Shown: positions 1 to 19,725 of the stretch, piece by piece
Numbering within the stretch: the first letter of the stretch is position 1
How the letters are laid out: every line of letters begins with the position of its first letter
DNA from: Cyanidioschyzon merolae
Lineage: Eukaryota
DNA length: 64,000 nucleotides
Strand: one strand, 5' to 3'
Assembly (NCBI GenBank): GCA_000091205.1
Contig: AP006502.2
Made by a program: the position numbers and the translations under genes
The notes under the pieces: model-generated
Databases searched by the model: none
Told to the model about the DNA's origin: nothing
Seen by the model: the letters and a program-made list of their open reading frames with translations, nothing else

Positions 1-3000
1 GGCTCCAGCGGCACGCCACCAGTCGTGGTGTGGGTCAGCGCGTCGGTGCCTCGCGCCTCGGGTGTCCCACCGGTCTGCGTGTTCTCAAGCAAATAAAAAA
101 GGGCATCACCGCACCCTTGCAGTGAAGCTAACAGCGTCAGAACATATTTCTCTTTCGGGGCGGTGTACTTGGGCTTGCTCGCTTTGAGAACCGCTGCCTC
201 GACGTCAGAGGAAAACGCCGCGGAGATCTTGCGTGTCAGTCTCTTCGTCGTATTCCCCAGCGTCGTTGCTTGAAGCGGCTTCCCCGGTGCCGACGTTCTG
301 GTCCAATCGGACACCTCGCTTCCTGACGGAACAGGAGCCCTGCCCGGGTGCGTAGAAGCGCTCGTGCCAGTGAGGTCACCGGGTGGTAAACCTGCTCGCA
401 GCGCCCTATCAGTTGTTTCACTCGTTGTACCCAAGTTTTTCCGAGGTGTCACTGAGTTCTTTTCGTATTGTACGTTCATGAAGAAAACTCGTGTAGCTCG
501 CAGCTTCACCGTGCCCTGCTTCTGTTCGAAGGAGAAAATATGGAATTCATGCCGTTTTTGGCATCGACGCGCGCCTATACGGCGCTGCTCCGGCACAGCT
601 GATGCGACATGGTCGTATCTTCTATAAAAGGTAAGTTTTGAATCTATTTTGACAGATTTATCTAGCCGATGCGCATCCGTGACGCACATCGTCATGGCAG
701 TCATAGGACCTGCGCCTGGAGATACCATCTCGGACGCTGCTTCTGTCTATCCAGTACGCGCAGGTGCCTGGAGCCATGGATATGACTTGCTAGCGCTGAT
801 CCTCTTCTAGTTGCAGGCTGCACGAGTTGGTATGATGTCACGCGTGACGCCGCGTCCCGCAAGGTGTCTGCTGGACGGCACTGTCTGCGGGTAACGGGTA
901 TGGCGTGCTGCTACGGGTTGCTGTTACAGTGGACGCGCACCGCACAGGGGTTTTCAGTGCAGGTTTTGAGCGGGGCTCTGCGAATGCAAACACGAATGCT
1001 TGGGCGTCAGTGTGACTTGGCGTCACGTTCGTGCAGACCGAGCTTATCGGGAACGGGTGCACGATACACGCTGCCATTAGCTTCTGATCGCCCGGCGGAG
1101 GAGGTTGGTACGACGCAGTCTTGGTCGTTTCTCCTCAAGCCGTCGTTTCTTCTGAGGCACTTACTAAGACTCTTTACGGCTCGTCGGCATTCGTTTGGTG
1201 CAGCGGTAAAGCATCCAGGCGGCTTTTGGTGCACCAAGCGGTCCGTTTCGAGACTTGTTCACAGTGCGTTGCGCTTGTGACCGGGTTGCTTCGCATCCTT
1301 GGTCAATTGATATCGGAATATGTGTCACGCTTGTGTGGCCGCGCAACGACGTTGCCGGTTGATTGAAGACTCTCTTGACGGAGGCAAACATCGACGAGCG
1401 AGAAGTTTCCATTTGCTGCGATCGATTGCTTGAGTCTTTCGGAATCAAGCCTTGGTGTATATCTAGTTAATTCAGGCAATCGTGATCGCTATCTGCGAAA
1501 TTCCCGCTGTCTCGCCAACATCATCCGATTTGGGCTTCTGAGGCAGTGCGGGAACCATAGCAGTGGACGAACTTTGCGAATGGCCGTCCTCACGTCTGAG
1601 AACGACAAAGGAGTAACACCACACGCGTCAAGCATCCTAGCTGGAACTCTATGCAGTGTGGAACGATGTGGCATGCTCGCGAATACCGAATCATGGAAGA
1701 GCATTATCGTTTGTCCATTTTCTGAGCAAAGCGTTCCCGGTTTATGTATATTGGACTGCATCCTTGCTGGTTTGTTGATCATTCTGTACCAGAGGATTGC
1801 TCCGGGCGAGAAGAAGTTGTCCGGCGCTTGGCCACGTATCCCTTTTCATCAAAAGTCTTCAGCATTTTAGCAAAATGCACTTACTGATTGCTTAGAGATT
1901 TCCGCGAAAGTTCGCTCGACACAAAACCGCGGGACGTTTCGGATACATGTGAAATTTCCGAATGTTGTTTCCAAGGTGTTCGAGTCCTGGTGCGGAAAGT
2001 GCCTGCGCGCATAGTTGCTAGAGAAACCGCACCATCACAAGCCACTGAACTGCGTTTGCCTCATAATCTGTCATTCGGTGAGCTCACTGCACACCTTCCC
2101 GTGCACCTGTCTCTATTTCGTGCTCTGTCTCTGTGACGGTGTCAATGTACACCTGGAATCGTGGTGCATGTATGGCGCCCAGAATTTTTCGATAGGTAAC
2201 CTGCGGAATCGGGTACTGGAGTCGCCGTCATCGTCGTCCGCTCTCGTCCGAGCAGGAGTGCAGCCTGTGCGCGCTGGAGCACGTCCAGCCCAATACGATA
2301 CCAGGAAACGACGCGACGTATTGGTCATTTTCTTAGCCAGCACGTTGAACGCTTCGGCGAATACGCGTTTCGTGCTTCCGCGTTACCGAAGAAGTTCTCG
2401 ACCGCAGCGCGGTCTCATGGTTTTCTACCAAAGATCGTCCGCATGTGCGATTTCGACGCTCGTTTTCGCTTTGAATCAAGAATGCAATGCATCCGTCTTC
2501 GCTCAGTACGGTGCTCCGAGCGTCTAGATGGGCAATGAGTGCGCCTATCCGCTTGGTAATATGCCTGCTGGCGTCGTGCATGCGTGACTCCCGACAAAAT
2601 CCTGGCATGGAAAAGAAGAGCAGCATCATTTGCTTCCCGTTCAGATCTTCGGGTCCGTCCTCATGATTTAGAAGTACGACAACGGCCAAGACATCTTTCA
2701 ACTCAGGAGTTTTACGCTCTATCAAATCTTTCTCTTCATCTACCTGGATCAGTTGAACATGAGTTTCGTTGGTTTTCTTATAACTAGGTTTCATAAAGTG
2801 CATGCAGATAGATATTCCATCGTTCTCCATGGGCCATGTACATTGCTGTCGAGTTCCTCCCTGTAGATGAAGATCCTTGATAGAGCTCGTCGAATACGCT
2901 TTGGAAAGCGGTTTGAGTGCTTCGTATTTGGCCGCAGAGGCCATCCATCGTTCACTGGCAAGTCCATATAGTCAAGTACACAAATCTCGCTGGCGGTATC

Positions 3001-5623
3001 ATGGGCACTGTTCTCACACATACCGACAACATCGAATGGAGAACCTTGGGGAGGCTAGGGCGCCCGCATACTGCACTTAGATAGTCTGCTTTGCTCTGGG
3101 CAGCTATCATCAGAAACACGCAGCATCGCAAGGTGCAAGCAAGGTAGGCAAACATCATGTTTGATCCATCGTTTGGATGCCACGTCCGCCGATCCGAGGC
3201 CGCGAACAGTGCCATAAGCTCGGATGATCCGAAGCGACTTTCGCTCTTGTCACAACATGCCGTCCAAAGTCGCCACATTCTAGTTCCACCGCCGCCACTA
3301 GCCCATCATTTGCATGAATAGACATCCCGAAGATGCATTCCACCAATCCCCATTTTTCTGGACACGCGGCGTGATGCTACAACGTCTTCAGAGTATCCCA
3401 TGTGAGGCGTTCGATATTCACCGGCATGTAGTGTCTGAGGTTGATTTGATACTTTTTGGAACCTGTGCTCCAGATGCTCCGATCGCCCACGTCGCCCAGC
3501 TACGATTCAGGGGTGCTCCGGAAACCACCAGGGCTTTTCTTTGGTCATCGAATCTGGCAGTATGGCATCTTATTTCTAGGGCATCTTTTGCGTCCTCGCA
3601 AGGAATTGATTGAAAAATTTGCGAATAATCTGGATAGCGGGCAACTCTGGGCCCGGAACTCCCACCTGCAGTTGCTTGAACAGAGGCTTCAAGGCGAGGA
3701 AGTCTAGTAGAGCGTTCCGCGGATAAGCAGCTTCGCGATCTGGAATCGTATCCTGCGATCTTCGGCGTCATGATGTCGAACGACCCGTCTACGAGCTCCT
3801 GAGCCTCATACGGCATTCGATATCGGAGAAGACGCCTGTGGCTGAATTGTGCTATGGAGAATAGACTGGAGCGGAGAGCAGCTCAACGTCGATCCGAGCA
3901 ACGTGTTCCTTGACTACGCTCGAGTGACGAAATGCGACCTTGTCTGAAAGCATCATTGAGGAATTTGGATAGAGGAAGCCCCGAAAACTGCTTCAATGAA
4001 CGATGCAGTTTTGACGAATCCAATATCTTTTGCGATTCTGGAGGAGGACTATATGATTGCATATTAGCTAAGGCTGATGTTTGTCGTACGGCTCGCTTGT
4101 CGCTTCTTAACGAACACCGATCTGTATCGGTTTGGGAATCCATTTCCAGGACAAGCATCTCCCTTGGATGAGGTCTCATCGAGTGAGACGAAGACTCGTT
4201 CCTCCTGTGCTCATTTTCGCGTTCCAATTCGAAATCGATAGCGTGTTGATCAAAGCGCGATCATCAGTTATAGAAGCGTGCTTCTTTCTTTGTTCATCCG
4301 TGTCTTGCTATTACCGATCGTATCAAAGGCCCGGAAACTTTACATTCTATGGGTTATTTCATGGCCTTTCTTCGAGAATAAATGGAATGGAATGAACTGA
4401 TCAGGAGATCGTAGTGTCAACAGAGATTCATACCTTCCGTTTTTAACTTACGACAGGCAGAACAGGGACCAGGAAAAGTACGGTTTAGCTACCTGCTGAA
4501 GGTAGAACAAATTAATTGTAAGTGTCCGGGCATCTCCCACAAGCTAGCAGTGACAGCATAACGTCTCGTCGCGACATGTCCCCAACTGCAATGTACATTT
4601 CTTCTGTTGAATACATTCCATCATAAACAAACCAAAAGAAAAGTGCCTGCTAGTACAGGCATTCCAGAATGCTGTTCCCCAAGTACAATCGTGTTTGACG
4701 GTACGGCTGATAGCCACCACGCTCGCTGGGCATTCCACGACGCCGCAACAGGCATGCTGGTTTCGCAACGACACCTGTTAGCATGTCGATAACCAAACTG
4801 ACATGGTGAGGATATTTCAATAAAACATCAAAGCGTCTTACTTTGAAGGGAATACTGCCGGTTGTCCGGGGCGCTTTTCGTCCGAAAGGCTGCAAACTGT
4901 CCAGGTGCCAACCATCAAGGACGCAACGATGATTTCTTCCTACCCAATGCGTATACGACCGCGAAAGACGTGCTTCGATCCTCGCTAACCACGCACTGGA
5001 CCATGCCGTTCTGCATGAATCGGAGAAACACCGATGATCAAGAGAAGCTTGCCGCTAACCAGAATGGAGCCGGAGTAGCTCCTCGGGGAGCCACAAAAAG
5101 CACTGGGAACATGGGCACAATATAGTCCGGCTGGGTGACAAGATCACGTAATGTTCGGACACACACGGTATCGCGTGGCAACCGTGCCGCATCAAGTCCG
5201 ATATCGTCAAGAAGAACCTGTTTCCAAGTGCCTTGCTCCTCTGGAGGTAACAGGGAGCCACAAAACTCGTTATCCTGTACTCTTGTCAGGTCACGTAAGA
5301 GCGCTGGGTCGCCGACATCGACCAGCGTTCGGGTCCATTGCGTTGCATACCTGGCGTGCAGAAGTGCATCTCACTGGGCGGTTAGTTCTGTGTTCTGCAT
5401 ATCGCGGTGGTCACTCTACGAGCATCACAGTATACGTTTCGCTCTCAGACGGGTAAACGGCGTTTCGGGGTGCGAGGGCAACGCGCGTCGAAGCGCCCGT
5501 TGCAAAAGACTTGCGCAACGCATCACGGACCCGTTCTCTACTCACGGGTCAGATATGATCAAGTCCGTCATCCTCGAACGGGGTCCAGTTGGGCAGCATG
5601 CTCGCTGCCTGATGCGAAGAAAC

Positions 5624-6625
5624 TTACCAAAAAGCAACTCGATCGCAGCGATATCGTCCTTCTGGGTCGAAGGTTAACGCAGGCGGTCCCTCAACGGGTA
5701 ATAGATCAGAAAAGAGCGCTTGCAGCTCTGCGTCATCGTCAACGTTTTCGAAAAAATCGCTTTGTTGAACTAACGGGTACACCACCATGAACGGCCAGCT
5801 GAACTTGATGGACACAGTGCTTTCCGAATCAGGATTGGGCTCGTCCCGTGCCACGGGTACGGGTTTCGGTTGCCAGTTTGAGACTTTTTTCTGTTGCGCA
5901 AATAGCGGCATCCCGAGGCGAATTCGCTGGCGTTCTAGGGTATCGAGCAAGCGCTGACTCTGGTCGACTCGCTGCTGGAGCAGGGCGTCCTTCTCAGCGA
6001 GCAAGCGCTGGGCACGTACCATCTCCTCGGCGATTCGTTCTTCGAGACGCTGAAGCGCTCTGCGCTCGAGCACATGTTCCGGGGCTTTGGTGCGTTCCAA
6101 GCCCTGTTCGCAAAATGTTCGCGCTTCAGGCAGCTTGCCCAGAGCTAGAGCACACGCACTTGCCCGATAAAAGGCTTTCGGGTGTTCCAGACCGCACGAA
6201 CGGATACACTGCTGTGCATCATGCAGGCCTCGCGCATAGTTTCCAAGTCGTCGATGTACCTCCGCTCGGTTTAGGTAGAGTGCACCTCGAACGGTTGAGG
6301 AGACTCCTGGTAAAGCTAGTGCTTCCGTGTACGACGCCATCGCCTGATGGAACAACGCGTGAGCACGTTTTCGTAACGTCGCCACGCTTTGCTCACCGCC
6401 AGGGAGTGTTAAATCTGCACCGGGATCATTTCCGCGGTCGAGTAGACGGCAGCCAAGGCGGTATCTCTGGTTGCCACGTTGACGCAAAAGCTCGGCCTGC
6501 TCATCAGCGGTCTCGTCGCCTTGTATCAGACGTCGCAGGGCCGAGTCAGCCGGAAGCTCTTCAGCGTTCTCAGCAAAAAGGTCTGGAAGTAGATCGTTAT
6601 TCTCGGAAAACGAGTGCTCTTTCAT
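5624..6625 (-). CDS. TTC4: TPR-repeat co-chaperone, TTC4/Cns1-like
   Basis: 333-aa ORF. The TPR region ALYLNRAEVHRRLGNYARGLHDAQQCIRSCGLEHPKAFYRASACALALGKLPEARTFCEQGLE aligns with human TTC4 (LYTNRAAAQYYLGNFRSALNDV...AIIRGALCHLELKHFAEAVNWCDEGLQ). The C-terminal block VSIKFSWPFMVVYPLVQQSDFFENVDDDAELQALF matches the TTC4/Cns1 C-terminal domain (RLSWPVLFLYPEYAQSDFISAFHED). Homology was recalled from memory, not searched. Confidence 0.7.
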   Translation of the reverse strand: MKEHSFSENNDLLPDLFAENAEELPADSALRRLIQGDETADEQAELLRQRGNQRYRLGCRLLDRGNDPGADLTLPGGEQSVATLRKRAHALFHQAMASYTEALALPGVSSTVRGALYLNRAEVHRRLGNYARGLHDAQQCIRSCGLEHPKAFYRASACALALGKLPEARTFCEQGLERTKAPEHVLERRALQRLEERIAEEMVRAQRLLAEKDALLQQRVDQSQRLLDTLERQRIRLGMPLFAQQKKVSNWQPKPVPVARDEPNPDSESTVSIKFSWPFMVVYPLVQQSDFFENVDDDAELQALFSDLLPVEGPPALTFDPEGRYRCDRVAFW

Positions 6626-8232
6626 GGACGTTCTCGGATGCCGAACGCTCCGAAGCCGGCCGCCGCCGTGCAGCTGTAGTTGCTGAACCTCACGGATACC
6701 GAGCGGTTACGCTGCACCGCCTTTTTTGACGCGTTCTGAAACCCTCTTTCGCTTTACAAACCGCTGAATTATCGCCAACCCACTTTATGGCACTTGTCAA
6801 TGCCGCAACTAAAGCCGCTCGGCACGAAGATCCGACTCCCTATCCCTACACAGTACGTATCAAGGGGTGCAGGGAATACCAGCGGATCGAAATTGTCGCT
6901 CAGCGGCTGGCGATGCATTGCTGCAGCGGCGCGAGCGCCCAGCTTCGTACGGGCGCGCTCATGTGATTCTCCCGAGTGCGCCTTCATTGAGGCCGGTGCA
7001 CGACGAGCAGTCCCTGCAACGAATGCGACGAGCATTTTCCAGTATCAGCAACGACTATGATACCAGGAGTACGTGTTCGACTCCCGATCAAGGTCTGACA
7101 CGGTGAAGCGACACCGACGCTGCGCGCTTTACAAACTACACTAGTGTTTATTCAGCTAGTCCACATTTGTACAAGATTCAAGCAATTTGTTGCGGAAGAA
7201 AGATTTTTGTGTGTGCCTCAAAAAAGATTGCACCTCATATCAATGAGACAAATGCTAAGGTATCACCCGGGAGCTGGGATAGTCGTTGAACCACTGCAAT
7301 CAGTGTCTGGTTTCATGACGTGTTCACCTGAAGCGGCGATCAGCGTTCGTTTCGCATGCGGTCTCGGATACCTGCACCAAGGCAATCGTGGCAAGCATTT
7401 GTTTATTCTGTTTTATAGCTGGGAAGGAGAGATTTGGGAACGATTTTCCCACAACGAGCAGCATCGCATGGGTTGCATCAGTGTGCTCCAAATGAACCAG
7501 AGGCTATGAGAATGCTTTGTTTCCGAGTGGATAGAGTCAACGGCGACCTTGTATGCTGCTGCTTACCTGTACCCCAAAGTAGCCGAATGCCAGCGCAAAA
7601 GCCTGCTGGACTGTCTGCGTGCGATGTTTCACATGCATGTAAGCGTATCCATAGAACCTGGCACACATACGCCTTGTGGAGGTACCCGCAAGGGCCCCGC
7701 CACACTGTCCTGTTACCATTCGGCGACCGCGAAGGCAGCGCACCCAGGATCGAAGCAAGCGCCTAGGGCAGGCTCAGGGCTCGCCAATAGGTCGTTGAAG
7801 CTTTGATGACTCTGTCGAAGAGGGAAAATCTGGAACGAGCTTACAGAAGGTGTTAGCCTCTGCGCACGAACGGATATCTCTTGCTCGCATATCAGCAGCA
7901 GCACCAGCAGCAGCACTTGAACATACTGTAGCGTCTGTTCGAATCATCGAAACGTGTCCGGGATGCAGGATCCCATCAACGATCCTGGATATCCCCGACT
8001 GCGCAATGGGCATCGGTATCTGGGAAATCATCTATCCTTCCCCAAAGTACCTTTAAGAGATCCTCCACTCCATCACCAACGCTACCTCATCGTGCTACCT
8101 TGCTTGCTTTTCGCATCAACGATGCAGCGCGCTGGGCACCGACACGCCGGCCGCCGGCGTTCAATAGAGCTCCCCTAGGCTCGATATACGACCGCGTTGT
8201 GTTACGATTATTTTTTGCGTAGGTGAGTTTCC

Positions 8233-10494
8233 ATGAAACAATTCGCATTCGTGGAGCACGCTGCTTTCGTTTACCCGGCGCTTCGACACACTCCGCGTCC
8301 AGAGAAGACTTGGAGTGCTTCACTCGCGTGCGGTGCGATCCCAGGGAACACTGGTCAGGTTCCAGGCTCTCGGTTGTTGCCGCGCTGGAGACACCGTGGC
8401 CTCGGTCTGACAACCGGCGTACACAAACGCACTGCCAAATACCGATCTCACAGGGGTACAAGCTCCCTGCACTCCGCTCAAGAGAATGCGAACTCGGCAA
8501 AGCCACTAGAGCCCGTGAGCGAGCACCGGCCGCTGCGCATCATTTTGGCTGGCCCGCCGGCTTCTGGAAAGGGTACCCAAGCTGCTCTTTTAGTTGAACG
8601 GTATGGTCTCGTACATATATCTACAGGGGATATGCTTCGGGCTGCCGTCGAAGCGGGCAGTGAGCTGGGCCTCGCTGCCAAAAAGTACATGGACGCGGGG
8701 GAGCTTGTCCCCGACGAGCTTGTCATAGGGCTCATGCAACAGCGCATGGCTGCGCCTGATGTGCAGACAAGTGGTTGGCTCCTGGACGGCTTTCCTCGAA
8801 CCGCTGCGCAGATTGTAGCTATGGATGCGGCGGGTATCGAACCTGACCTGGTGATCAGCTTGGATGTGCCCTTCGAGATCCTCAAGGAGAGGGTCTCCGG
8901 TCGCCGGCTGGATCCGGAAACTGGTCGGATTTATCACCTGCGTTTCGATCCACCGCCAGCGTCGGACAAAGCCCTTTTAGATCGTCTCATCCAGCGTTCA
9001 GATGATGATGTGCAAAAGCTTGCCGTGAGGTTTGAGAACTACCGGGAGAACGTGGATGCGCTAAGGCAACGATATGGCGCGATTATGGCGGAGATCGACG
9101 GGCGTCGCTCAAAAGAGCAAGTCTTCGAAAATATTACCCGTGCAGTTGGCATGCTACGAATGCGACGTAGCTGGCAGATGAAGCGCTCGAGGCCGCCAAG
9201 AATCATCCTCCTTGGACCACCGTTATCGGGAGTGGAAAAGTACGCCGCGAGGCTCTGTAAAGATCTCGGCTGTATCCGCATCTCTACGGAACAAGTCATT
9301 CGAGATGCAGCAGCAGCAGAGCAGACGAGAACGGGTCTCATGATCCGGCAGCATTTGGAGAATAACGAGTTGGTGCCGGATCATCTGGTCGCTCATGTGC
9401 TTGGGAAGCGCCTCGCCGCCGCAGATGTGGAGCAACACGGATGGCTGCTCGACGATGTGCCGCGACGTATCATGAAAGCCAGTTCGCTACTGGATGCAGG
9501 TATCGAACCTGATCTCGTTTTGTTGCTCTATTTACCACATGAAGATCTGGAAGAACGAATGGTTCAACGTCTCTGGGACCCGGAAACCGGTCGCTACTTC
9601 CATGAGAAATATGATCCGCCCTCAGCAGATGATGCAGCCCTCAGAGCGCGATTGATTCACCGCACCGATGAGGATGAGAATCTGGCGCGATGGTTACTCG
9701 GAACGTACTACGTCGTAGAGTCAGAGCTTGAGGCTCAATACGCCGGTAGAATTGTTCAGATCGATGGGCTTGCCCCCGACGAGGAAATTTACAAGCAAAT
9801 GACAGCGGCAATAGAAGCGCGAGGGATTCCTCTGCTGTCCGACTTGACACGCGCCACCTTCGAGGACCTGGAACTCGGGAGTGCATTCATGGTGCTCTAC
9901 CGTGATCCCAAGCCCGCCACAATCCATGAAGTCCGTTGGCGAGGCAAAGGCGCATGGCCAGACCTTTTTACACGGCCACTGCTTGCGATTGGTGATCTGA
10001 TTGCGCTCTTGGTTGCGAGTAGCGTGTTGCGTCTGCTTTATGGCGGCAGACTCATCTTGGATGCGATCGTTTGGAAAACAGCTGCACCGTTTATCATTGT
10101 GTGGATCGTTGGCGCCCCGTACATAGACGCTTTCACGCAGAATGCCCTTCGAGATCGCCGGGAAGCTTTGCTATCTCTATTTCGAGCCTGGCGAGTCTGC
10201 ATGCCCTTTGCGGTCTTTGTTCGAGCGCAGTCCATGGGCTTCGCGCCACCTCTACATTTCATCGTCGCGTTGCTTCTGCTCACCTACGTATTCTTGGCTC
10301 TGTGGCGTCTCTGTTATGTCATTTTTCTACAGGGCGAGTATGATTCAGAGGGTAATAGGACGCTGAGCCTTCGGGATTTGGGGCCATGGCGTCGACCAGT
10401 CGACAGGGGGGCGCCCTATCCCGGCAGCGTTCGTTCCCAGACGCCTCCGTTGACCGACTCTTCATTGTTTCGCGAAACTCTAGGACCAACGTGA
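8233..10494 (+). CDS. Tandem adenylate kinase: one intact AK domain, one degenerate AK-like domain, then a hydrophobic C-terminal domain; the N-terminal ~100 aa resemble an organellar presequence
   Basis: Domain 1 has an intact P-loop (ILAGPPASGKGTQAALL), the NMP-binding motif (GWLLDGFPRTAAQ) and an LID region (GRRLDPETGRIYHLRFDPP). Domain 2 repeats the architecture, but its P-loop is GPPLSGVEKY (the Lys is lost) and DGFPR has become DDVPR. The C-terminal ~200 aa are strongly hydrophobic (LIALLVASSVLRLLYGG..., FIIVWIVGAPYIDAF..., FIVALLLLTYVFLALW) and probably form 3-4 TM helices. The N-terminus is rich in S, R and A. Confidence 0.8.
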   Translation: MKQFAFVEHAAFVYPALRHTPRPEKTWSASLACGAIPGNTGQVPGSRLLPRWRHRGLGLTTGVHKRTAKYRSHRGTSSLHSAQENANSAKPLEPVSEHRPLRIILAGPPASGKGTQAALLVERYGLVHISTGDMLRAAVEAGSELGLAAKKYMDAGELVPDELVIGLMQQRMAAPDVQTSGWLLDGFPRTAAQIVAMDAAGIEPDLVISLDVPFEILKERVSGRRLDPETGRIYHLRFDPPPASDKALLDRLIQRSDDDVQKLAVRFENYRENVDALRQRYGAIMAEIDGRRSKEQVFENITRAVGMLRMRRSWQMKRSRPPRIILLGPPLSGVEKYAARLCKDLGCIRISTEQVIRDAAAAEQTRTGLMIRQHLENNELVPDHLVAHVLGKRLAAADVEQHGWLLDDVPRRIMKASSLLDAGIEPDLVLLLYLPHEDLEERMVQRLWDPETGRYFHEKYDPPSADDAALRARLIHRTDEDENLARWLLGTYYVVESELEAQYAGRIVQIDGLAPDEEIYKQMTAAIEARGIPLLSDLTRATFEDLELGSAFMVLYRDPKPATIHEVRWRGKGAWPDLFTRPLLAIGDLIALLVASSVLRLLYGGRLILDAIVWKTAAPFIIVWIVGAPYIDAFTQNALRDRREALLSLFRAWRVCMPFAVFVRAQSMGFAPPLHFIVALLLLTYVFLALWRLCYVIFLQGEYDSEGNRTLSLRDLGPWRRPVDRGAPYPGSVRSQTPPLTDSSLFRETLGPT

Positions 10495-11931
10495 AGCTCG
10501 TGCGATCAAAGCAGCTCCGTCAGGGGGTTATCGAGGTGCTTGTGCGGGCGTGTTCCGTTGGTAAGCGCGGGACTATGCGGGTGCTTCAGCGGTGGCAGGT
10601 GGTTCACGCAGTGCTGTTCGCGTTCGCAAGCGCTCCACCCCGAGACCAGAGCGCCAGCAAAAGGCCTTGGGCGCCTCGAGCAACAAGCAGGCCAATGACC
10701 ACTAGCAGACTCGCATAAAGCGTGCAGTGAATGGGGTTGCAGTGTTCCGAGCGAGCCGCATTAAGTGTCAGCGTACTGAGAGCTTGAAGCGCGTTGCAGA
10801 TACGGTAGCGAGCAGCAACAACCAAGTACTCGACGTACTCCGAATAGAAGAGATTTCTGCCAGCTGCATCCGTCTAGCAGCGTTCGTATAACGACCTGTC
10901 AAGCAGCTGTTCTGCCGCCGACCTGCTCAGCAACGAGCAAAGCGTTTTGGATGACCTGTTCCGCAACGATATTTCAATGACACTGGGCTTTTTAGGAGTC
11001 GTTCGAGCCTTTATTTGTGGAAGCGGGTAAGCAGAATCGCGGCACCAAATTGCACGTTTACTTGAGCGCTCCTAGCCAGGCATGCTTTCTTCGAAATGAC
11101 GATAGACAACGAACGTTCCAATGATGCTTTGGTGCCGTCCAGAACAGGTCACTTTCGAAGCGTTTTCACACTCTTCGCTGGACTCGGCAGCAAATTTGCT
11201 GCTCTGTGATCCTGTTGCGTCCACGAGAGCGCCCGGCGGCGGAACTTTCACCCAGGCTCACAACCTGCGATTCAGGTTGGTAGTCACATTCTTTTCCGTT
11301 GACCTCCTGCTGCATCGTCGCAACAGCGGTGGATGTTCCTCTAAGCAAGCCAACCTGCCTGCGCAGATGCGAGCACGCGCTACGTCCAAGGTCCATAGAC
11401 ACCGTATCGTGCGAAATGCTCTCGTCTGAAACGAGCCGGGCGCTTTCGTTGCGCAGGCTCCCAACTGGAGTACGCTGCTGCAGCGTAGCGCTCATAAGCG
11501 CGCGATTCCCTCAGAGTGAACACGCTGCACATGCGCAAAACCTTCGACAAGCGCCGAATCCGACTACGGATCAACGACGATAGGTGGAAAACGCATCCAT
11601 AGTGAAGTCGTCTTTGGAAATGATCTGTTTTGGTATCGAGGTGAGCGTCGCGCTTCCTATCAAGTTCGCTACGATGAGAAACGGTTGCTGCCACGAGCGG
11701 GAGCATGCGCTCCTGGACGTTGCCCGGGATACTGCCAGCATGGTCGCAAGAGCACCGTTCTAGGTCTGCCTTCTTTGCACCTATCCAGAACTTGTCAGTT
11801 CATCAGAAATACTGCTTTGAGTGACGTGTGCAGTGCTGGACAATAGCACCAGGGCGCCCGATGCTCCCCAGAAGATGCACCCGGGCTGCCTCCATAGCAT
11901 CTATCCAGAACGTGCCAAGTCGTCAGGGACA

Positions 11932-13257
11932 CTACTGTGAGCCTCGCATCCACTGCTGGACGAGGGCACCAAGGCGCCGGATGCTCGCCAGCGGATGCTC
12001 GGGACCGAACCTTGCTCGTGCTGTACTGCCTTTGCTCTCGAGCGCCTGGTGAACAGCTCTTCGCCAACATCCGGAACGCAACTCCTCGATGGTGAGCTCT
12101 ACACATAGTCCCTGGAGGTCGCGACGGAGCGCCTCTTCTTCCAAGAAGAGCGGTCGCCGAACATACACCAGCGGTGTACCAGCTGCGAGACATTCCGCAC
12201 TGATCCCGTATCCGAGTTTACCGAGTACCACGTCCGCTGCCTGGATCAAGTCCGGTACATATGTCGCTGCGCTAGGATGTACGAAGCGTACCCTGGGCGA
12301 TGATGATACCGCGTCGTATTCGGTGAGCAGCATCATTCGCCAAGGCGAGCCCGGTTCCCGAATGAGGTCCACTTGTTCCAGAAACGAGTGCAACGGACAG
12401 CCTTGCTCCCCGAATAGCGTCTTACAGTCGAAACTACCAAAACAGACCAACAAAACACGGGCGGATAGCGAAATGCCCAGACGACGACGCGTTTCAGCTC
12501 TTGTCGACTTCCACGGACGCGATACAGGCCCAGCTGAGAAGCATCGACCGCCAAATGACCGCAACGGAGGCACCAGCCCTGGCGACAGCTGAACCCAAAC
12601 GGGTGCCTCAGACTCATCCATGGCCATGCGCTCGACCAGTGCCCGGTTCTGAGGCGTGTTCAGGCTCGGGATTTCTGATAGAAATTGGTCATAAATAGCA
12701 CTGAACAAGAAGTTCGTGACAAAGACGAATCGATCGGAGAGCGCAGCAGCTTTCGCGGCAGCCGCTGCAAGCGCAACGGCATCGGCAAGAATGAGCTGCG
12801 GCTGCAACCTCCGCAGCATAGCAGACTCGACTCGGATGAGTGTCTGGCGACGTTCATTGATCTCTCGATAAGCCGTCAGTGTAGCCGCTGCGTCGATCGT
12901 GAGTGCATCGCTTTGGATGCAACCAACGTCAAGCTTGACCGCGCGAACGCGCAGCTGCTCTTCAGGACGTAAGCTTTGCGGGAACTCGACGGCGTGCGTT
13001 CGGTAGGCCCCGAGGAGCAGCAGCAGCTGTGCATGAACCGCATCTGGAGACACAGGCGTGCAGAGGAGTACGCAGAACTGGTGCGTGAGCAACTCACAAG
13101 CCAAAGCCAAGGATCGAGTCAAGTGCCCCCAACCGTGACCAGAAACATAGTAGGCTACCAAGCCTCGGGCTTTGTGTAGAGCACCCCAGTCCAAGAAGTC
13201 CTGCTCGCCGTTTTCCGGGGATACCACGGAGCTTTCACGATACCCGTCCGATATCAT
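11932..13257 (-). CDS. GT-B fold glycosyltransferase-like protein, homologous to the N-terminal non-kinase domain of plant L-arabinokinase (ARA1); no GHMP kinase domain is present
   Basis: LVAYYVSGHGWGHLTRSLALACELL vs ARA1 VFAYYVTGHGFGHATRVVEVVRHLI. LDVGCIQSDALTIDAAATL vs LDCGAVQADALTVDRLASL. FVFVTNFLFSAIYDQF vs SVCVTNFSWDFIYAEY. ADVVLGKLGYGISAECLAAGTPLVYVRRPLFLEEEALRRDLQ vs SDCMLGKIGYGTVSEALSYKVPFVFVRRDYFNEEPFLRNMLE. The ARA1 sequence is recalled from memory. Confidence 0.6.
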   Translation of the reverse strand: MISDGYRESSVVSPENGEQDFLDWGALHKARGLVAYYVSGHGWGHLTRSLALACELLTHQFCVLLCTPVSPDAVHAQLLLLLGAYRTHAVEFPQSLRPEEQLRVRAVKLDVGCIQSDALTIDAAATLTAYREINERRQTLIRVESAMLRRLQPQLILADAVALAAAAAKAAALSDRFVFVTNFLFSAIYDQFLSEIPSLNTPQNRALVERMAMDESEAPVWVQLSPGLVPPLRSFGGRCFSAGPVSRPWKSTRAETRRRLGISLSARVLLVCFGSFDCKTLFGEQGCPLHSFLEQVDLIREPGSPWRMMLLTEYDAVSSSPRVRFVHPSAATYVPDLIQAADVVLGKLGYGISAECLAAGTPLVYVRRPLFLEEEALRRDLQGLCVELTIEELRSGCWRRAVHQALESKGSTARARFGPEHPLASIRRLGALVQQWMRGSQ

Positions 13258-14944
13258 AGATTGGGCGAGCAGGTCTCTGGAAGCGGCCAGAGTCTGAAAG
13301 AATGGCGCATATTCGATCTTTATGGATCATGGATCTGTCCCGCTGGTCCACGCCAGTGGGAAGCACGCTGGTCAAAGTCCCGCCCGCGCTACGCCCAAGT
13401 CGAACTGGCATAGAACAGGTCCTTTCGCACTGACGTACAAGTCCATGTTTGGGTCTCCTCTGACCGTCATCAGCGCCGGCTGCTGCGGGGCTATTTCTGG
13501 GACTGCCTCGTTTGCTTTTCTTATATCTGCGGCTTTCAATTCGCCGGTTTCCCCGGTTCTTCCATATCCGTTCATAGCAGTCGATTTCGAGATTTGATGG
13601 CAGCATTCAAATCCCAAATTCGCAGCTTCCAGTTGTTCCCGACACACTGCACGCAAAGACGCTAGTCGTGCACTACGCTTCGCTTACCCGTTTTGACTTA
13701 TTCGTGTATAGCCTTCAGTGTGCACGTCGCAGTGGCGATATCTGGCTGTGATCAGGTATTCCCATGCAGCCGCCGGACATTTTCCGCCCCTGAAGGCTGC
13801 CCTGCTGCCCGTGAACGCTTGCTTCATCGATTGGCGCATGCGTTTGACGGGTAAACAAGATGCTCCTGGATGTCGTTCTCCATAGTCGCGCCCAGTACCG
13901 CGTCCTACGATGACGGGCGCTTCTTCTAGCCGATCGTCTCGAAATGTACGCCGTCCGCTGCTAGTGCAAACGCACGCTGTCTCATGCGGTAGAGGATTTG
14001 TGGAACGCGATGTCGTCCACAATGAAACAAGTACCGAGAAGAAAACCCAGGCTGGCGACTGCGTAGAGAAAACTCGATCCGTTGGCGTTCCCGTCGAGCA
14101 TAAGCGCTGATGCATTCTCCACTGGGAGTGAGCGATGCGACGAAGCAAGTCCGAGTCCAAGACCCTATTCGATGTAAACAAAAGAGAGGGCGGCGCCTGA
14201 GCGCATATCGCGTAAGAGGTATCGAGCTGCTGTGAAATGCGGTTTCGTAGATGGCTACCAATACAAGAGGGGAATTTCGGCATTCGAACGTCATCGATCA
14301 CTTGACATGACAAGTCTGGCAACTTTGTGGCATGTGTTTGTGAAGATGTCGTCGAGCGACGGAATCGACATTGTTTGATAGTCAATTCAGCGACGCAAAA
14401 TGCTCCACTCATGTGTTGCCTTGAAACGGTACGACCGACCAACCTGAAGACCATATGATTTGACCATACTGCACATTGGGAACGAAAAACGTCTGCAGGC
14501 TTCCACCTATGCATAGGATCCATACATCAGTTCTCTTATGAACCAGTTTTTTCGAGGTTGACGCGAATCATCTTGATTCCGATAGCGTTACCAAATCCAG
14601 CGAAGAAGCCTGGACGGAGCCTCTCCGAAAAGACACCCGAGCATTCCCCAAAACTACGTATATATATATATACGTACGCTCTCCTTGCTGCATTTTGAAT
14701 CTCGAAGCTGCACATCGAAGCATCTTCGGAAAAAGATGTCAAGGCAGGAACAGAGCGACCAGTACAGTGTTACATGTGAATGCCCAATGGGTGTAGAACT
14801 CGACAGCGCAGCGCTATAGCGCTATGCCACCGATCCCGTGTTGGGAGCACTGGCTCCAGCTCCTTCCCCTATGCTCCGAATATCACATCATGCCTCATCC
14901 AGAGCTGTTTGTATTGATCTCGGCACAAATTCCGATAAAAAACG

Positions 14945-16408
14945 TTGCCTGATGCTGCAGTGGATGTGCTCGCGAAACGACGCCATGCCGTCTTGACCAC
15001 TCCTGGTACGTTGTCGTTGCCTCCGGTTTCTCAAGCAACTGCTGCGTGTAGAATGACAGCGGCTAGGCCAGTCAAAGCATTTTTATCGGTTTCGAATTGT
15101 TGGTACCTTTCATCTAGAGATCATTCCTCACGCCGCTCGACTTCTGGAAACAGCGACTTGCATCGAGCGCGTTCTCAGCAGGCAGTGCGCTTCCCTCGGA
15201 CACGTTGCCTACCGAGTCGCTGCGTTGGCCGAGTCAGACGCCACGGACTTGCCCTTGAAACGCTGCTCCTACAGTTGCAAGGCTTGGGGCCGCAGAAATC
15301 GCCCTTGGGAAGACAGCAGCTTCAAGTCCCAAACGACAGGGGCACAGACTTAGCTCCGACGCTCGCTGTTGCTTCTGGTGACGATGGCGGTTGCGGGGGC
15401 CGGATCAGCACGCCCGGTCGAGGATGGTACTATCGCTGGGGAGCTGGTGGGTACGCATCTTCGTCCGATGAAAGGGACAACGGCGATGCGGAGCACCAGA
15501 GCTTCGAGCAACCAGGACAGGAGGCTGCCGGTCACGCGAGCTCCGGTACCGGGAGTGACGCGTCCGACCACGAACAGCTGCTGCGAAAGATGAACCGCCC
15601 TGTGGAATCTGTGCCACGGGAACTCTTTACTCTAGACCTGAAAACTGCGCAAACGTACCTTGTAGCAACGGCAAGCGGCCTACCTCGGTTCCTCACCGAC
15701 CGCTTTCCCGCATGGCAAGCGAAAATGCTCGCTGATCCGAACTTTTTCTTCAAACTTGTCATGGAGGAAACCGTCGGCATGGGCCTCTGTCTGACTGGGG
15801 TCGTTCTTGCTCGTGGCGATCGTCTCATGAAAGAACTAGATTTTGTGCTCATCGACACCCTGGTGGGCGCAGCGCTCAGCTTCGTGCTCCTGTGGTTGCT
15901 CGCACCCAGTGCAACGATGCAGTCGCTTCATCAGAGACATCTATCGAGTTCGTCAAATGCAGGACCAGTGAGCGCTCTGCAACATTATTTTCGCACACTT
16001 CCATCATGTGCGTTGGCACCAGCATCGTCAGCGACGTCCTACTCATGGAGTCAACGAGCGGTTGCCTTTCTCTACAAGGGATCGCTCTTTGCAATCGCCG
16101 GTTTCATGGCCAGTGTGATTGGCACCTCCATGGGCTACGCTTTATTGGCTCTACGGAAGCGCCTCACCGGAAAGGAACCGGAAAACCGAATGCCTCCCAT
16201 TCTCATCATGAGTCTGGGTTGGGCAAGTTTCATGTTCGTTTCCGCGAATCCTCGGTACCAGGTGGTGACGGCGGCAGAGCTTTTCATTTATGAAAAGGCG
16301 TCACCTGCGGTTGCCAAAGCCAGCACGGCTATTCTGCGCACCGTAAACAGTATTGCCGGAGGTGCAACTTGGGTGCTCTGGGCTCGAGCGTTTGGACTCA
16401 ACCAGTAG
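14945..16408 (+). CDS. RETICULATA-related / DUF3411 membrane protein, probably plastid envelope; the S/R/A-rich N-terminal region may be a targeting peptide and the true start may lie downstream
   Basis: The block ADPNFFFKLVMEETVGMGLCLTGVVLARGDRLMKELDFVLIDTLVGAALSFVLLWLLAP matches the DUF3411 signature of plant RETICULATA-related proteins (ADPSFLFKV...E.V.D.....A.V..RG..F..E.E....DL.VG.V.......L.AP). Hydrophobic segments continue C-terminally. Confidence 0.55.
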   Translation: MPDAAVDVLAKRRHAVLTTPGTLSLPPVSQATAACRMTAARPVKAFLSVSNCWYLSSRDHSSRRSTSGNSDLHRARSQQAVRFPRTRCLPSRCVGRVRRHGLALETLLLQLQGLGPQKSPLGRQQLQVPNDRGTDLAPTLAVASGDDGGCGGRISTPGRGWYYRWGAGGYASSSDERDNGDAEHQSFEQPGQEAAGHASSGTGSDASDHEQLLRKMNRPVESVPRELFTLDLKTAQTYLVATASGLPRFLTDRFPAWQAKMLADPNFFFKLVMEETVGMGLCLTGVVLARGDRLMKELDFVLIDTLVGAALSFVLLWLLAPSATMQSLHQRHLSSSSNAGPVSALQHYFRTLPSCALAPASSATSYSWSQRAVAFLYKGSLFAIAGFMASVIGTSMGYALLALRKRLTGKEPENRMPPILIMSLGWASFMFVSANPRYQVVTAAELFIYEKASPAVAKASTAILRTVNSIAGGATWVLWARAFGLNQ

Positions 16409-18378
16409 TGTTCGCTCAAGAGCTTCCTCTAGAAGTAAAAGTTTTGGTCTTAGAGGGGAAGCATGTCAAGAAATGGCGGTCGAGGCGCGTTACAGCCTCC
16501 CGGTGCCACACATTGTTTTCCTCTGACTCGTCTCGGAACTCGATGTTGGCACTGCAAAGCCATTTTATGAATGTGGGCCAAGTCGGAATTTATCGCTCTC
16601 GCCCTAGCCGCTTCGAAAATTGACTGGTCTCTGTATTCTAGCGCTTTCCATGGTAAGTTGCGGGTGCTCGTCCAGAAGTGCGCTGCTAGATGCAACAGGA
16701 GACCACCGACAACGATCAGGGCTTGATTCGAAGCGGAACAGGGCGCTCACTGAGTATCCAGAGCACCTGTTTTTTTTTGAGGAAAATTGAGACGTATCAG
16801 CGCCAAGATCCACAAATACGATCGTGCGCGATTCTATTCAGAGCCTCGCATACCCGTTACAGACTTGAATGAAACACTGAACTGCTCGCCCGGTTCCCGC
16901 CATGAGCGTATTTTTCCAGACATTCTTTCGGTGTCGAGACCCCGCATTCCGAGTGCTGCCATGAACGCTTGCAGATCCATGCGTCGTTTTGAGATTCTCG
17001 GTCATTTTTTTCGGATTGGCTCTTTCGACGCTTTAGAACTGGAATTCGTCAAGTCATCGGAATCGCGATGATTCTCGACGTCCTCGTAAAAGGTTCGTAA
17101 AGTGACCAATATCCTTATCCAATACATTCCTAGAAGCCTCCGTTATTCTGCTCTGATTGCAAGCAGCATGCTCGAATCACGCATTCTTCGGGTTTTCGAA
17201 CTTTCTGTTTCGAGGCACGTCGTCGGCGCAGGAATTCATTCCGCTGGATTGACAAGGAAAAGTACACAGCGTCTTCTATTGACGCATGGTTCACAGGCTC
17301 ATGCAGAACATTCACTGAACGTCCCATGTCCAATCATCGATTCCGTTCGAAAGACAAATCGTCCACTCTTTGTGACCATCGATGAAACGGCCTTGGAAAA
17401 CAGCCTGATGCGTCTGACGGCTTATGCTCCATGAGGCTCACTTCTCTTCTGTGTGCATGGAAACGTGTCGTGGACGTGGTCATGCGTCATCGCAACGATC
17501 GCTTCCTGTCGAGCGTGCGCCACAGCTTTGCACGAAGCGGGCGTAGACGGATCGAAATATCTTGACGACTTGGCCAGTTTGTATTTTTCTTCTGGTACGT
17601 GTCTCATCAAGGACGTTCCCGTGTCTCATAGCTCCTCAGTCGAATGGAACAGCATACGACTGCTCATGCAGCCGACAGCAAAGTCGTCAATGGAATCCCG
17701 CAGAAGAAGCCCATGATCGTAGTGTCCGGCATGGAGCACAGTTACGGAGTAGCGCAACCATGGGAGCATTCCGTAGCTAACACGCGCACGTACCGAGCAA
17801 TGAAGCGAGCGTCAATGCGGTACAGGTCAGCGCTCGCAGAAGCAGGTATGGTGTACATCTGGGAACGCTTGACCAGAGCCAAATGTTACCGTTGCGAAGC
17901 ACGCGACGGAGCTACACGCAAAGAACATGAAAACGGCAAGTGAAACGCAGATCGCAACAACTGCCGGTGCTTGGAATGCGTCGAAAACAGCCGGAAGCTA
18001 CGCACTAGGCACTTGCAAGCTGCCATCAATATCCTTTGACCGCTGAAAATGCATCTGTAGGGATCCGAGCGACCAGCGTATTGAGAGCCGGAGCTCGACC
18101 AGAGGAATACCAATCCGTCGCGCAAAAAACCCACAAATGCTGGTTTTCCTGACAGCGGAAAGTGTCCCAAACGTTCGCATGTACGCTCCGCTAGTAGACC
18201 AGTTCCATTTCCCTTCGATCTTGGATCAACGGCTACTGGTACTACAAGAATCTGCACGGCAGACAAACGATTACGATTCCGAAATGCTTTGCATACCTTT
18301 CATGCGTACAGACCAAGATCCTGCTTCATTGCTAGCTCGATCCTTGCCGGCCATTTTCACCGAAACGCTCAGGGAACC

Positions 18379-19725
18379 TCAACTTGCAACATCTACGAAT
18401 GCCGGCACGCTACGCGTCCCCGTTGAGTCATCTGCATTCTCGAGTAGCTGCTTCTCTTTCGGAGACTCGCTACTCGGCGAACCGCTACTCCTCAATCGCT
18501 GTTCCGTGTCTGGGTTGCTTCCTTTAGACGACTTCGCTTGTCGTTCGGCTTTCTCAGCCGATCGCAGCCGGGCAGCGCGTCGCTTCTGTTTCTTTGTCGA
18601 CCTGGCTGCAGCGCGTTGCTGCTGTTGTTTCTCCATCTTGACTAAATCGCGTTCCCAGATGTCCGCCATCAGCTTGTAGATTCGCAACGCGGTGGTTGCA
18701 TCCTCTACGGAATCGTGACCCGGCCCGTGGGCGGTCCCCTTCTGAATTACCTGATCCAGGAGTTCTGCAGCGAGCGTTCGAAGGGACGGCGTTCGAAAGG
18801 TCCGCATGGGCAGCAGCCTCCGTAACCGCAGATAATGGGCAGTGTCCCGAATGTGTCGACGAGGATGACTCAGTTGCAGAACCGTGAGATCCTTGCGAAG
18901 CTCGTGACCCACAATGATCCGACCTTTCATTAACGAGGCTACTGCGCGTTGTGCCTCCGCAAACGGGACGCAGCTCGGATCTTGCAAATGATGAGGCTGG
19001 ATCCCACTGTAGGGAGTACGAAAGTCAACCACTCGGGTATCCACCTGCACAAAGCGATCATAGAGCACGGCCTCATCGTAGTCAACGACGGATATGCGGG
19101 CAAGTGCATCCGTGGACCCGCCTGGGCCTATGCCCACAAACTCACCGTCAAGAGCGATAATCGAGCCCAAAGGTGCTGCTCGCTCCTGTGGATAGAGTCC
19201 AAGAGGTCCGGCTTTTCGCAAAGGCTCCTTTTCTGGAGCGTGCAGCTCTGCTCGGACGTTTTCCAAAGAGGAACCCTCCGTGTCGTTTGGTTGTTTCGTT
19301 CCATCCGTGCGAACGCTTGTCGCTACTCGGTCAGAAGAGCGGTGGCGTTCAGGCGATGGCTTGACCTGAGCTGGACTTGCAGCTGGCACGCTTTCGCCAA
19401 GTGATTGGTTGCTAGTGCCCGAGTCTCCCAAGTTACCGATTGCATCACTGTTTTGTTTGGAGACGGAACTTGTTGCAGAAGACCGATGCAGTTGTCGTGG
19501 GGCCTGTCCCGTATTCAGCTGTTGCTTCAGCGCTCTCCAGTTATCGTCCGCAGTTGGCAGACGCTTCTTGCGCCGACCTCGTGGCTGCCCGCTCTCTACT
19601 TGCGGTCGTTCAAGGTCGTCTGCGCTTGCTTCCACTTGCTGGCTACTGCCCGTGAGGCATTTTACCCCCAGGTCCTCTTCGGACACCGTCTTGCCGCTGT
19701 TCTTTGCTGACTTGGACACCGTCAT
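18379..19725 (-). CDS. REX4: RNA exonuclease 4 (REX4/REXO4-like) DEDDh 3'-5' exonuclease; the N-terminus is basic and low-complexity, consistent with a nucleolar protein
   Basis: IIALDGEFVGIGPGGSTDALARISVVDYDEAVLYDRFVQ corresponds to the Exo I motif (ALDCEMVG...) of REX4. HELRKDLTVLQLSHPRRHIRDTAHY is the Exo II region. HDSVEDATTALRIYK is the Exo III motif (H-x4-D). The N-terminus is lysine/arginine-rich. Confidence 0.75.
   Translation of the reverse strand: MTVSKSAKNSGKTVSEEDLGVKCLTGSSQQVEASADDLERPQVESGQPRGRRKKRLPTADDNWRALKQQLNTGQAPRQLHRSSATSSVSKQNSDAIGNLGDSGTSNQSLGESVPAASPAQVKPSPERHRSSDRVATSVRTDGTKQPNDTEGSSLENVRAELHAPEKEPLRKAGPLGLYPQERAAPLGSIIALDGEFVGIGPGGSTDALARISVVDYDEAVLYDRFVQVDTRVVDFRTPYSGIQPHHLQDPSCVPFAEAQRAVASLMKGRIIVGHELRKDLTVLQLSHPRRHIRDTAHYLRLRRLLPMRTFRTPSLRTLAAELLDQVIQKGTAHGPGHDSVEDATTALRIYKLMADIWERDLVKMEKQQQQRAAARSTKKQKRRAARLRSAEKAERQAKSSKGSNPDTEQRLRSSGSPSSESPKEKQLLENADDSTGTRSVPAFVDVAS

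Follow-up and report, generated by a model that had tools for sequence, protein, structure and literature searches.

A probable plastid-membrane adenylate kinase of Cyanidioschyzon merolae with a putative pseudo-kinase domain and a DUF3054 membrane domain

Adenylate kinases (AKs) set the balance of ATP, ADP and AMP in plastids, and the plant plastid enzyme, known from Arabidopsis as the AMK2 type, is soluble and consists of a single AK domain. Chains with two consecutive AK domains are represented by AK8 and AK5; AK8 is a soluble component of cilia and both of its domains are catalytic. An AK fold that lacks a catalytic P-loop occurs as Hydin_ADK (PF17213), a pseudo-domain of large ciliary proteins, and DUF3054 (PF11255) is a membrane family with four transmembrane (TM) helices. 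Here we describe a gene of the red alga Cyanidioschyzon merolae whose product brings such elements together. It lies at positions 8233-10494 (+) of the window, that is, the whole 64,000-nucleotide stretch of contig AP006502.2 that we analysed, and forms a single uninterrupted open reading frame (ORF) of 753 amino acids with an ATG start. The encoded protein carries two AK domains, referred to below as AK1 and AK2, followed by DUF3054 (Table 1). We consider it to be most likely an adenylate kinase tethered to a plastid membrane, in which AK1 would perform the chemistry, AK2 would be retained as a conserved pseudo-kinase with a structural or regulatory role, and DUF3054 would serve as anchor and possibly as functional partner; we assign this reading a probability of about 0.6.

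The translation is identical to C. merolae 10D XP_005539518.1 / BAM83482.1, annotated as "probable adenylate kinase, chloroplast precursor" and located on a 1.62-Mb chromosome. That the gene encodes an AK is thus on record already, and public domain databases show its domain architecture. In the library searched, no paper dealt with this gene of C. merolae or with a membrane AK of red algae, and none discussed the AK-DUF3054 fusion or its pseudo-kinase domain. Pfam matches ADK twice (217.5 bits for the whole protein, cut-off 26.8, best stretch at residues 105-281) and DUF3054 at residues 585-694 (39.2 bits, cut-off 25, E 1e-9, profile positions 1-109 of 110). An AlphaFold2 model of the whole protein, built with 40 homologs, reached a mean predicted local distance difference test (pLDDT) score of 80, with both AK domains at ~90-97.

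Catalytic residues were compared in an alignment of the two AK domains, and of the AK domains of 14 orthologs, with E. coli Adk, whose numbering is used for the AK residues below. AK1 is canonical at all inspected sites (30+) in C. merolae and in every ortholog, including G7-T15, T31, G32, D33, R36, D84-R88, Q92, R119, R123, R124, R131, R156, D158, D159 and R167. Its P-loop, GPPASGKGT, is a Walker A motif of the form GxxxxGK[GS]T with the catalytic lysine (K13 in E. coli), and it is followed by DGFPRT (185-190), GRRLDPETGRIYH (223-235) and RSDDD (255-259). The best single-domain match in the PDB is the maize chloroplast AK (1zak, E 2e-61), with the mitochondrial enzyme AK2 (1ak2) at 6e-42, and residues 100-312 are modelled with pLDDT >90. 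The preliminary description, made from the DNA letters alone, had called the first domain intact on account of its P-loop, DGFPR and LID arginines, all of which are indeed canonical, and AK1 is predicted to be an active ATP:AMP phosphotransferase.

The second domain presents a different picture. Homology to adenylate kinases is clear (phmmer to E. coli Adk, E 5e-22; a second Pfam ADK stretch), and AlphaFold2 folds residues 320-530 confidently as an AK, with AK secondary structure and a pLDDT of ~90; the overall fold and the LID-like segment, QRLWDPETGRYFHEKYDPP, are thus kept, as had been proposed. The P-loop reads GPPLSGVEK and the DGFPR motif has become DDVPRR. Compared with E. coli Adk, AK2 carries G10L, K13V, G14E and T15K in the P-loop, and further changes are G32E, D33Q, G85D, F86V, Q92K, G122Q, R124L, D159E, R167L and K200A; T31, R36, D84, R88, R119, R123, R131, R156 and D158 are kept. 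In E. coli Adk, the R167A substitution leaves <1% of the activity and lowers kcat 137-fold, while K13Q affects both kcat and KM (PMC8297476). Considering these data together with the losses in the P-loop and among the catalytic residues, AK2 is very probably not a phosphotransferase. Every motif quoted in the preliminary description, in either domain, was found where it had been placed, and the alignment bears out the lost P-loop lysine and the change from DGFPR to DDVPR. The extent of the damage had been understated, as R167 and Q92 are gone too; with the P-loop destroyed and more catalytic residues lost, the term pseudo-enzyme is justified.

Loss of catalysis does not seem to have led to loss of constraint. 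The ortholog of Cyanidiococcus yangmingshanensis (P0002) is full-length, with 745 aa and 65% identity, and has the same GPPLSGVEK and DDVPR. Between the two proteins, identity is 83% in AK1, 77% in AK2, 65% in DUF3054 and 57% in the linker, falling to 32% in the C-terminal tail and 20% at the N-terminus. Therefore, AK2, at 77% across two genera, is constrained, and its degenerate state, being kept in the sister genus, is not the result of random decay; this also answers whether orthologs conserve the dead domain, which the preliminary description had left to a search. Among the listed members of a 28-member strain cluster, AK2 has 1 polymorphic site in 211 aa, and the full-length members listed for the 90% cluster (mostly environmental) differ from the C. 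merolae protein at 3-7 residues. Divergence between the two genera is saturated at 65% amino-acid identity, and the strains differ at <=7 residues. Judging from these comparisons, AK2 is under strong purifying selection though apparently non-catalytic.

The combination of an AK with DUF3054 is not restricted to C. merolae. We found the fusion in >25 red-algal proteins, so that the arrangement, which had been described as not a textbook one, is not unique to C. merolae and is a local version of one found across red algae. Tandem AK domains followed by DUF3054 occur in Rhodosorus marinus, Porphyridium purpureum (labelled "Adenylate kinase 8"), Erythrolobus and several more proteins, and a single AK with DUF3054 and no AK2 in the florideophytes Gracilaria and Agarophyton and in proteins of like architecture. 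In tandem proteins from outside the cyanidiophytes AK2 is fully canonical (GAPGSGKGT, DGFPRT, all arginines), with one exception (P0028); judged by their residues, both domains are catalytically competent in Rhodosorus, Porphyridium and Erythrolobus, and not in C. merolae. A degenerate AK2 is confined to the cyanidiophyte clade and one unplaced contig. Since AK2 is intact or absent in the other red algae, the pairing of an active with a dead AK domain is, on this distribution, a derived and lineage-specific state and not a design principle of the family, whose ancestral form is best read as one or more active AK domains tethered to DUF3054.

How the degeneration proceeded can be partly traced through a more distant relative (P0009; 48% identity), which lies on a contig of 67% guanine-cytosine (GC) content with its AK gene in the syntenic locus. 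Its AK2 keeps the P-loop lysine but has lost D84, G85, Q92, R156, D158 and R167. Changes at G32, Q92, G122 and R167, as well as G85D, are common to AK2 of P0009 and C. merolae, which suggests an onset of inactivation in the ancestor shared by C. merolae, Cyanidiococcus and P0009, with decay of the P-loop following afterwards. Long branches lead to the degenerate AK2 domains in a neighbour-joining tree. The exceptional tandem protein P0028 (AK-AK-DUF3054; gene at 3001-5328 of contig L002 from Logan SRR31152685, 72% GC) carries K13R, G14R, T15A and D84S in AK2, which may have been inactivated independently. We also note that this AK2 is degenerate in another way (GAPGAGRRA, SGVPR) and that the DUF3054 domain of P0028 keeps the canonical motifs and the RW tail.

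Why a dead domain would be kept invites an alternative, namely the adenylate sensor that the preliminary description had tentatively placed at an organelle envelope: AK2 would bind AMP or ADP without turnover and regulate AK1 or DUF3054 allosterically. The domain is under constraint, and in the chain it has an active AK on one side and a conserved membrane protein on the other; moreover, T31, R36, R88 and the L58/V59 region of the nucleoside monophosphate (NMP) site are kept, and cyanidiophytes show high conservation of the NMP-bind segment HLENNELVPDHLVAHV. However, Q92, the determinant for the adenine of AMP, is changed, as is G85, and T31 is replaced in both Cyanidiococcus (by I) and P0009 (by L). 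Other red algae manage with two active AK domains or with one, so a sensor is not needed for the core function of the family. We therefore regard this role as possible but unlikely.

The C-terminal part of the protein is more than the generic anchor it had been taken for: it belongs to a recognisable conserved family, DUF3054, that stands alone in other plastid-bearing eukaryotes. The model contains exactly four helices (aa 582-604, 611-631, 642-668 and 674-700) with pLDDT >90, coinciding with the Kyte-Doolittle peaks, and a separate AlphaFold2 model of the C-terminal module from 65 family members agrees (pLDDT 87.7, predicted template modelling score 0.80). The hydrophobic helices proposed for the last ~200 aa are thus real, while the length was overestimated, as the four helices span only 582-700. 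They belong to the same gene as the AK domains: the fusion recurs in the >25 red-algal proteins, the ORF is continuous and the locus is syntenic, and on these grounds two separate genes or a mis-assembly were rejected. C. merolae keeps D588, T616, P619, F620, W624, R664, W691 and R692, and by its sequence the domain is a bona fide, divergent DUF3054 member. Of the flanking segments, the linker is modelled with pLDDT <50 over 541-569 and matches in alignments the 'VSEFVRRAEEAYE..NWSGQAG' segment of other red algae; the tail (701-753) is of low confidence and disordered from 725 to 753, without the '...LLRRW' end of the family. The loss of the FAxIGRxxH motif is common to C. merolae, Cyanidiococcus and P0009 (alignment inspected by eye). 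Overall, the alignments indicate that the cyanidiophyte C-terminal half has drifted from the family consensus and that AK1 has not.

Such drift could mean that AK2 and the divergent DUF3054 are a passive spacer and anchor, and that the sole selected role in cyanidiophytes is to hold AK1 at the membrane. Indeed, family-invariant residues are missing from both domains but not from AK1, the branch leading to AK2 is long, and florideophytes manage without AK2. On the other hand, the 77% identity of AK2 and 65% of DUF3054, against 20-57% for the linker and termini, is more constraint than a spacer usually needs, and the intramembrane D588, R664 and R692 as well as the P619/W624 motif are kept. A purely passive role thus appears rather unlikely to us.

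To see where DUF3054 occurs outside the fusions, we searched a profile of the red-algal C-terminal module against 1.84 billion representatives and obtained 1539 proteins, 663 of them at E <= 1e-10. Every long match is a fusion to AK and has a red-algal-type N-terminus; the remaining proteins, ~140-340 aa in length, stand alone. A word-index homolog search with the C-terminal region alone gave no matches, a limitation of the method for this TM family, and with the DUF3054 alignment it gave 6 matches only, including Closterium. Stand-alone members are present in land plants, green algae including streptophyte algae, stramenopiles and chromerids (among the sources are Vitrella, Chromera, Fibrocapsa, Nemacystus, Chlorokybus, Closterium, Netrium, Marchantia (MARPO_0039s0075), Calypogeia, Diphasiastrum, Cuscuta and Sesamum). 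These eukaryotic proteins match the module over its full length, pre-TM 'W-SGQAG' and '...LLRRW' tail included, and carry no functional name, at most 'DUF3054 domain-containing'; the library searched yielded no study of DUF3054 function, the sole paper there that names the family being unrelated. In several stramenopile and chromerid proteins a signal peptide is followed directly by Phe (for example MATLFLTAGCCLAFAPP), an order typical of the bipartite signal of complex red plastids. Two green-lineage proteins look like gene-model or assembly artefacts: in P0159 (380 aa) the TM4 segment is repeated ~six times, and in P0303 (Chlorokybus, 585 aa) the same ~190-aa N-terminal block stands at both ends.

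Bacterial DUF3054 proteins are ~145 aa long and occur in Chloroflexota and Actinomycetota. In the Ktedonobacteria-type contigs (L005-L025) DUF3054 is found at about 4001-4470, and at 16 of 17 loci it is immediately preceded, on the same strand, by ccmB and ccmC, which serve heme export in System I cytochrome c maturation; the gap is ~175-360 bp. The neighbours in Chloroflexaceae and actinobacteria are unrelated (monogalactosyldiacylglycerol synthase, an alpha/beta hydrolase with a cNMP-binding domain, LPG_synthase_TM), and the neighbourhood on two metagenomic contigs was uninformative. As only one bacterial order shows the ccm linkage, a DUF3054 function derived from it was rejected.

A bolder idea starts from the fusion itself. 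DUF3054 might be a conserved plastid-membrane protein whose function depends on adenine nucleotides (e.g. a nucleotide-, phosphate- or Mg2+-linked transporter or regulator), the coupling being hard-wired by the fusion to AK, and the dead cyanidiophyte AK2 might have been turned into a non-catalytic regulatory module that binds AMP/ADP and gates AK1 or the membrane domain. We offer this as a speculation that we do not expect to hold. If true, the AK-DUF3054 fusion would open a first route to the function of this uncharacterised family, which all land plants have.

The location of the protein has to be read from its N-terminus. Residues 1-96 are disordered (pLDDT <50), and residues 1-100 contain 15 K/R, 5 E and no D. 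The segment shares the N-terminal features of rhodophyte plastid precursors: it is basic, hydroxylated and unstructured, with a Phe near the start. The latter is characteristic of plastid precursors in glaucophytes and the red lineage (PMC2222254). C. merolae and Cyanidiococcus both start with MK(Q/R)F, and the florideophyte and Porphyridium orthologs with MAFV or MAFL. The organellar presequence suggested earlier is thus plausible, and the protein is probably located in the plastid. A mitochondrial or dual-targeted protein strikes us as improbable. The Arg-rich, amphipathic-looking N-terminus would suit it, and so would the position of the Ktedonobacteria DUF3054 genes beside ccmB/ccmC, as plants and red algae have the System-I pathway in their mitochondria; but AK1 is closest to the plant chloroplast AK, orthologs have MAFV-type starts, several stramenopile and chromerid DUF3054 proteins carry plastid signals, the reference annotation reads chloroplast precursor, and the ccm linkage is clade-restricted.

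Taken together, we propose the following course for the plastid-membrane-tethered adenylate kinase. A transit peptide of ~95 aa would direct import, after which the four-helix DUF3054 would insert into a plastid membrane, either the inner envelope or the thylakoid. The helix count is even, which would place the C-terminal tail on the side of the AK domains; we infer this side to be the stroma, and AK1 would catalyse ATP + AMP <-> 2 ADP beside the membrane. AK2 would have arisen as a second AK domain, active at first; in cyanidiophytes the P-loop lysine would have gone, along with several residues that serve the substrate and the transition state, and with them phosphate transfer. The domain would since have been kept by purifying selection as a folded module of structural or regulatory use, as a spacer or dock or possibly through residual nucleotide binding via R36, R88, R123 and R156.

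Several observations weigh against this proposal. AK2 retains most of its core arginines and has a lysine two positions downstream in GPPLSGVEK, which leaves a small chance of residual or non-canonical activity. The C. merolae start is not a textbook MAFV, its phenylalanines being at positions 4 and 6, and there are 5 Glu in the segment. K/R residues are concentrated on the AK-domain side (97 vs 11 on the other, summed over 14 orthologs), in line with the proposed topology, but this asymmetry is confounded by segment length, so the topology argument is weak. Additionally, the cyanidiophyte DUF3054 has lost near-invariant residues (F595A, G599L, H603Y, G632D and the C-terminal L..RW), so its ancestral function may be gone and only an anchor left. 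The most extreme conclusion from the first of these points, that AK2 is still an enzyme (an AK, another phosphotransferase or an NTPase) working through a non-canonical P-loop with the relocated K336 and with R36, R88, R123 and R156, draws on five of six core arginines plus D84 and D158, on a VEK motif identical in Cyanidiococcus and on the 77% conservation, but is very improbable given that G10L and G14E put bulky or acidic side chains into the phosphate-binding loop, that R167 (whose replacement by alanine alone leaves <1% activity in E. coli Adk; PMC8297476), Q92, G85 and K200 are lost too, and that P0009, with its P-loop lysine but without D84, R156, D158 and R167, leaves no single catalytic residue set conserved across the clade.

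Table 1. Features of the AK-DUF3054 gene, in window positions (residue numbers are those of the protein).
Feature	Position	Residues	Strand	Basis
N-terminal extension, probable plastid transit peptide, start MKQFAFV	8233..8529	1-99	+	low pLDDT, composition
AK1, canonical long-type adenylate kinase domain, predicted active	8530..9168	100-312	+	Pfam ADK, 1zak match
AK1 P-loop GPPASGKGT	8551-8577	107-115	+	motif
AK2, AK-fold putative pseudo-kinase domain	9190..9822	320-530	+	phmmer, alignment, AlphaFold2
AK2 degenerate P-loop GPPLSGVEK	9214-9240	328-336	+	motif
AK2 DDVPRR	9451-9468	407-412	+	motif
AK2 LID-like segment	9565-9621	445-463	+	motif
Linker, poorly ordered	9823..9963	531-577	+	AlphaFold2, alignments
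DUF3054 (PF11255) membrane domain, four TM helices	9964..10332		+	Pfam, Kyte-Doolittle, AlphaFold2
C-terminal tail, divergent	10333..10494	701-753 + stop	+	AlphaFold2, alignments

Regarding the gene itself, in-frame stops lie at a short distance upstream of the ATG, and a longer 5' version of the ORF was rejected on account of these stops and of the similar start in Cyanidiococcus. Several ORFs of 70-135 aa overlap the gene in other frames or on the complementary strand (8478-8885 (-), 8590-8937 (-), 9039-9341 (-) and others); they are most likely spurious, because the sequence is GC-rich (~55% GC in the window). Gene order is conserved between positions 5624-19725 of the window and the 67% GC, cyanidiophyte-like contig (L001) that carries P0009. 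The syntenic neighbours are a TPR/Wheel gene (Cns1/TTC4-like) upstream, a gene of 441/460 aa downstream, a RETICULATA-like gene, which is on opposite strands in the two loci, and an RNase_T exonuclease. The downstream 441-aa ORF (11932-13257 (-)) has a GHGxGHLTRS motif near its N-terminus and no Pfam match at E <= 0.001; it is 40% identical to its 460-aa counterpart on the syntenic contig (E 1e-70).

A membrane-tethered adenylate kinase would mean that adenylates are buffered locally, at a particular place on a membrane. The red-algal fusion also provides a 'Rosetta-stone' link between adenylate metabolism and DUF3054, a plastid-associated family of membrane proteins whose conservation reaches from chromerids to land plants, and with it a testable hypothesis of adenine-nucleotide coupling. 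Moreover, AK2 offers a natural series from kinase domain to pseudo-enzyme under selection, which by residue content runs from fully active (Rhodosorus, Porphyridium) through partly degenerate (P0009, P0028) to P-loop-less (Cyanidioschyzon, Cyanidiococcus) and absent (florideophytes). C. merolae is genetically tractable.

Among the described systems, Hydin_ADK resembles AK2 in having an AK fold without the catalytic P-loop. However, AK2 scores 23.1 bits against PF17213, below the cut-off of 27, the context of Hydin_ADK is the ciliary central pair, and in the tree AK2 clearly derives from a duplicate of a plastid-type AK; the likeness is one of concept only. With AK8 and AK5 the protein shares the two consecutive AK domains, and AK8 of axonemal doublets (9fqr_G8) is its best whole-protein match in the PDB (phmmer E 1e-62; Foldseek E 5e-26 over 445 columns). 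It differs in that AK2 is dead by its residues, lacking the P-loop lysine and R167, in that the protein is predicted to be membrane-anchored and organelle-targeted, and in that red algae have no flagella. Stand-alone DUF3054 proteins have in common with the C-terminal domain the four TM helices, GD in TM1, TAAPFxxxW in TM2, an R ending TM3 and WR in TM4, and the eukaryotic ones share the pre-TM 'W-SGQAG' with non-cyanidiophyte red algae; they are not fused to an AK, and the cyanidiophyte copy is without their FAxIGRxxH, G632 and L..RW tail. Finally, the plant plastid AK, represented by the maize enzyme, aligns end to end with AK1, and both have a long LID without a zinc cluster, all catalytic residues and an N-terminal targeting extension. 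To this soluble, single-domain plan the C. merolae protein adds the AK-fold AK2 and a C-terminal DUF3054 domain of four TM helices.

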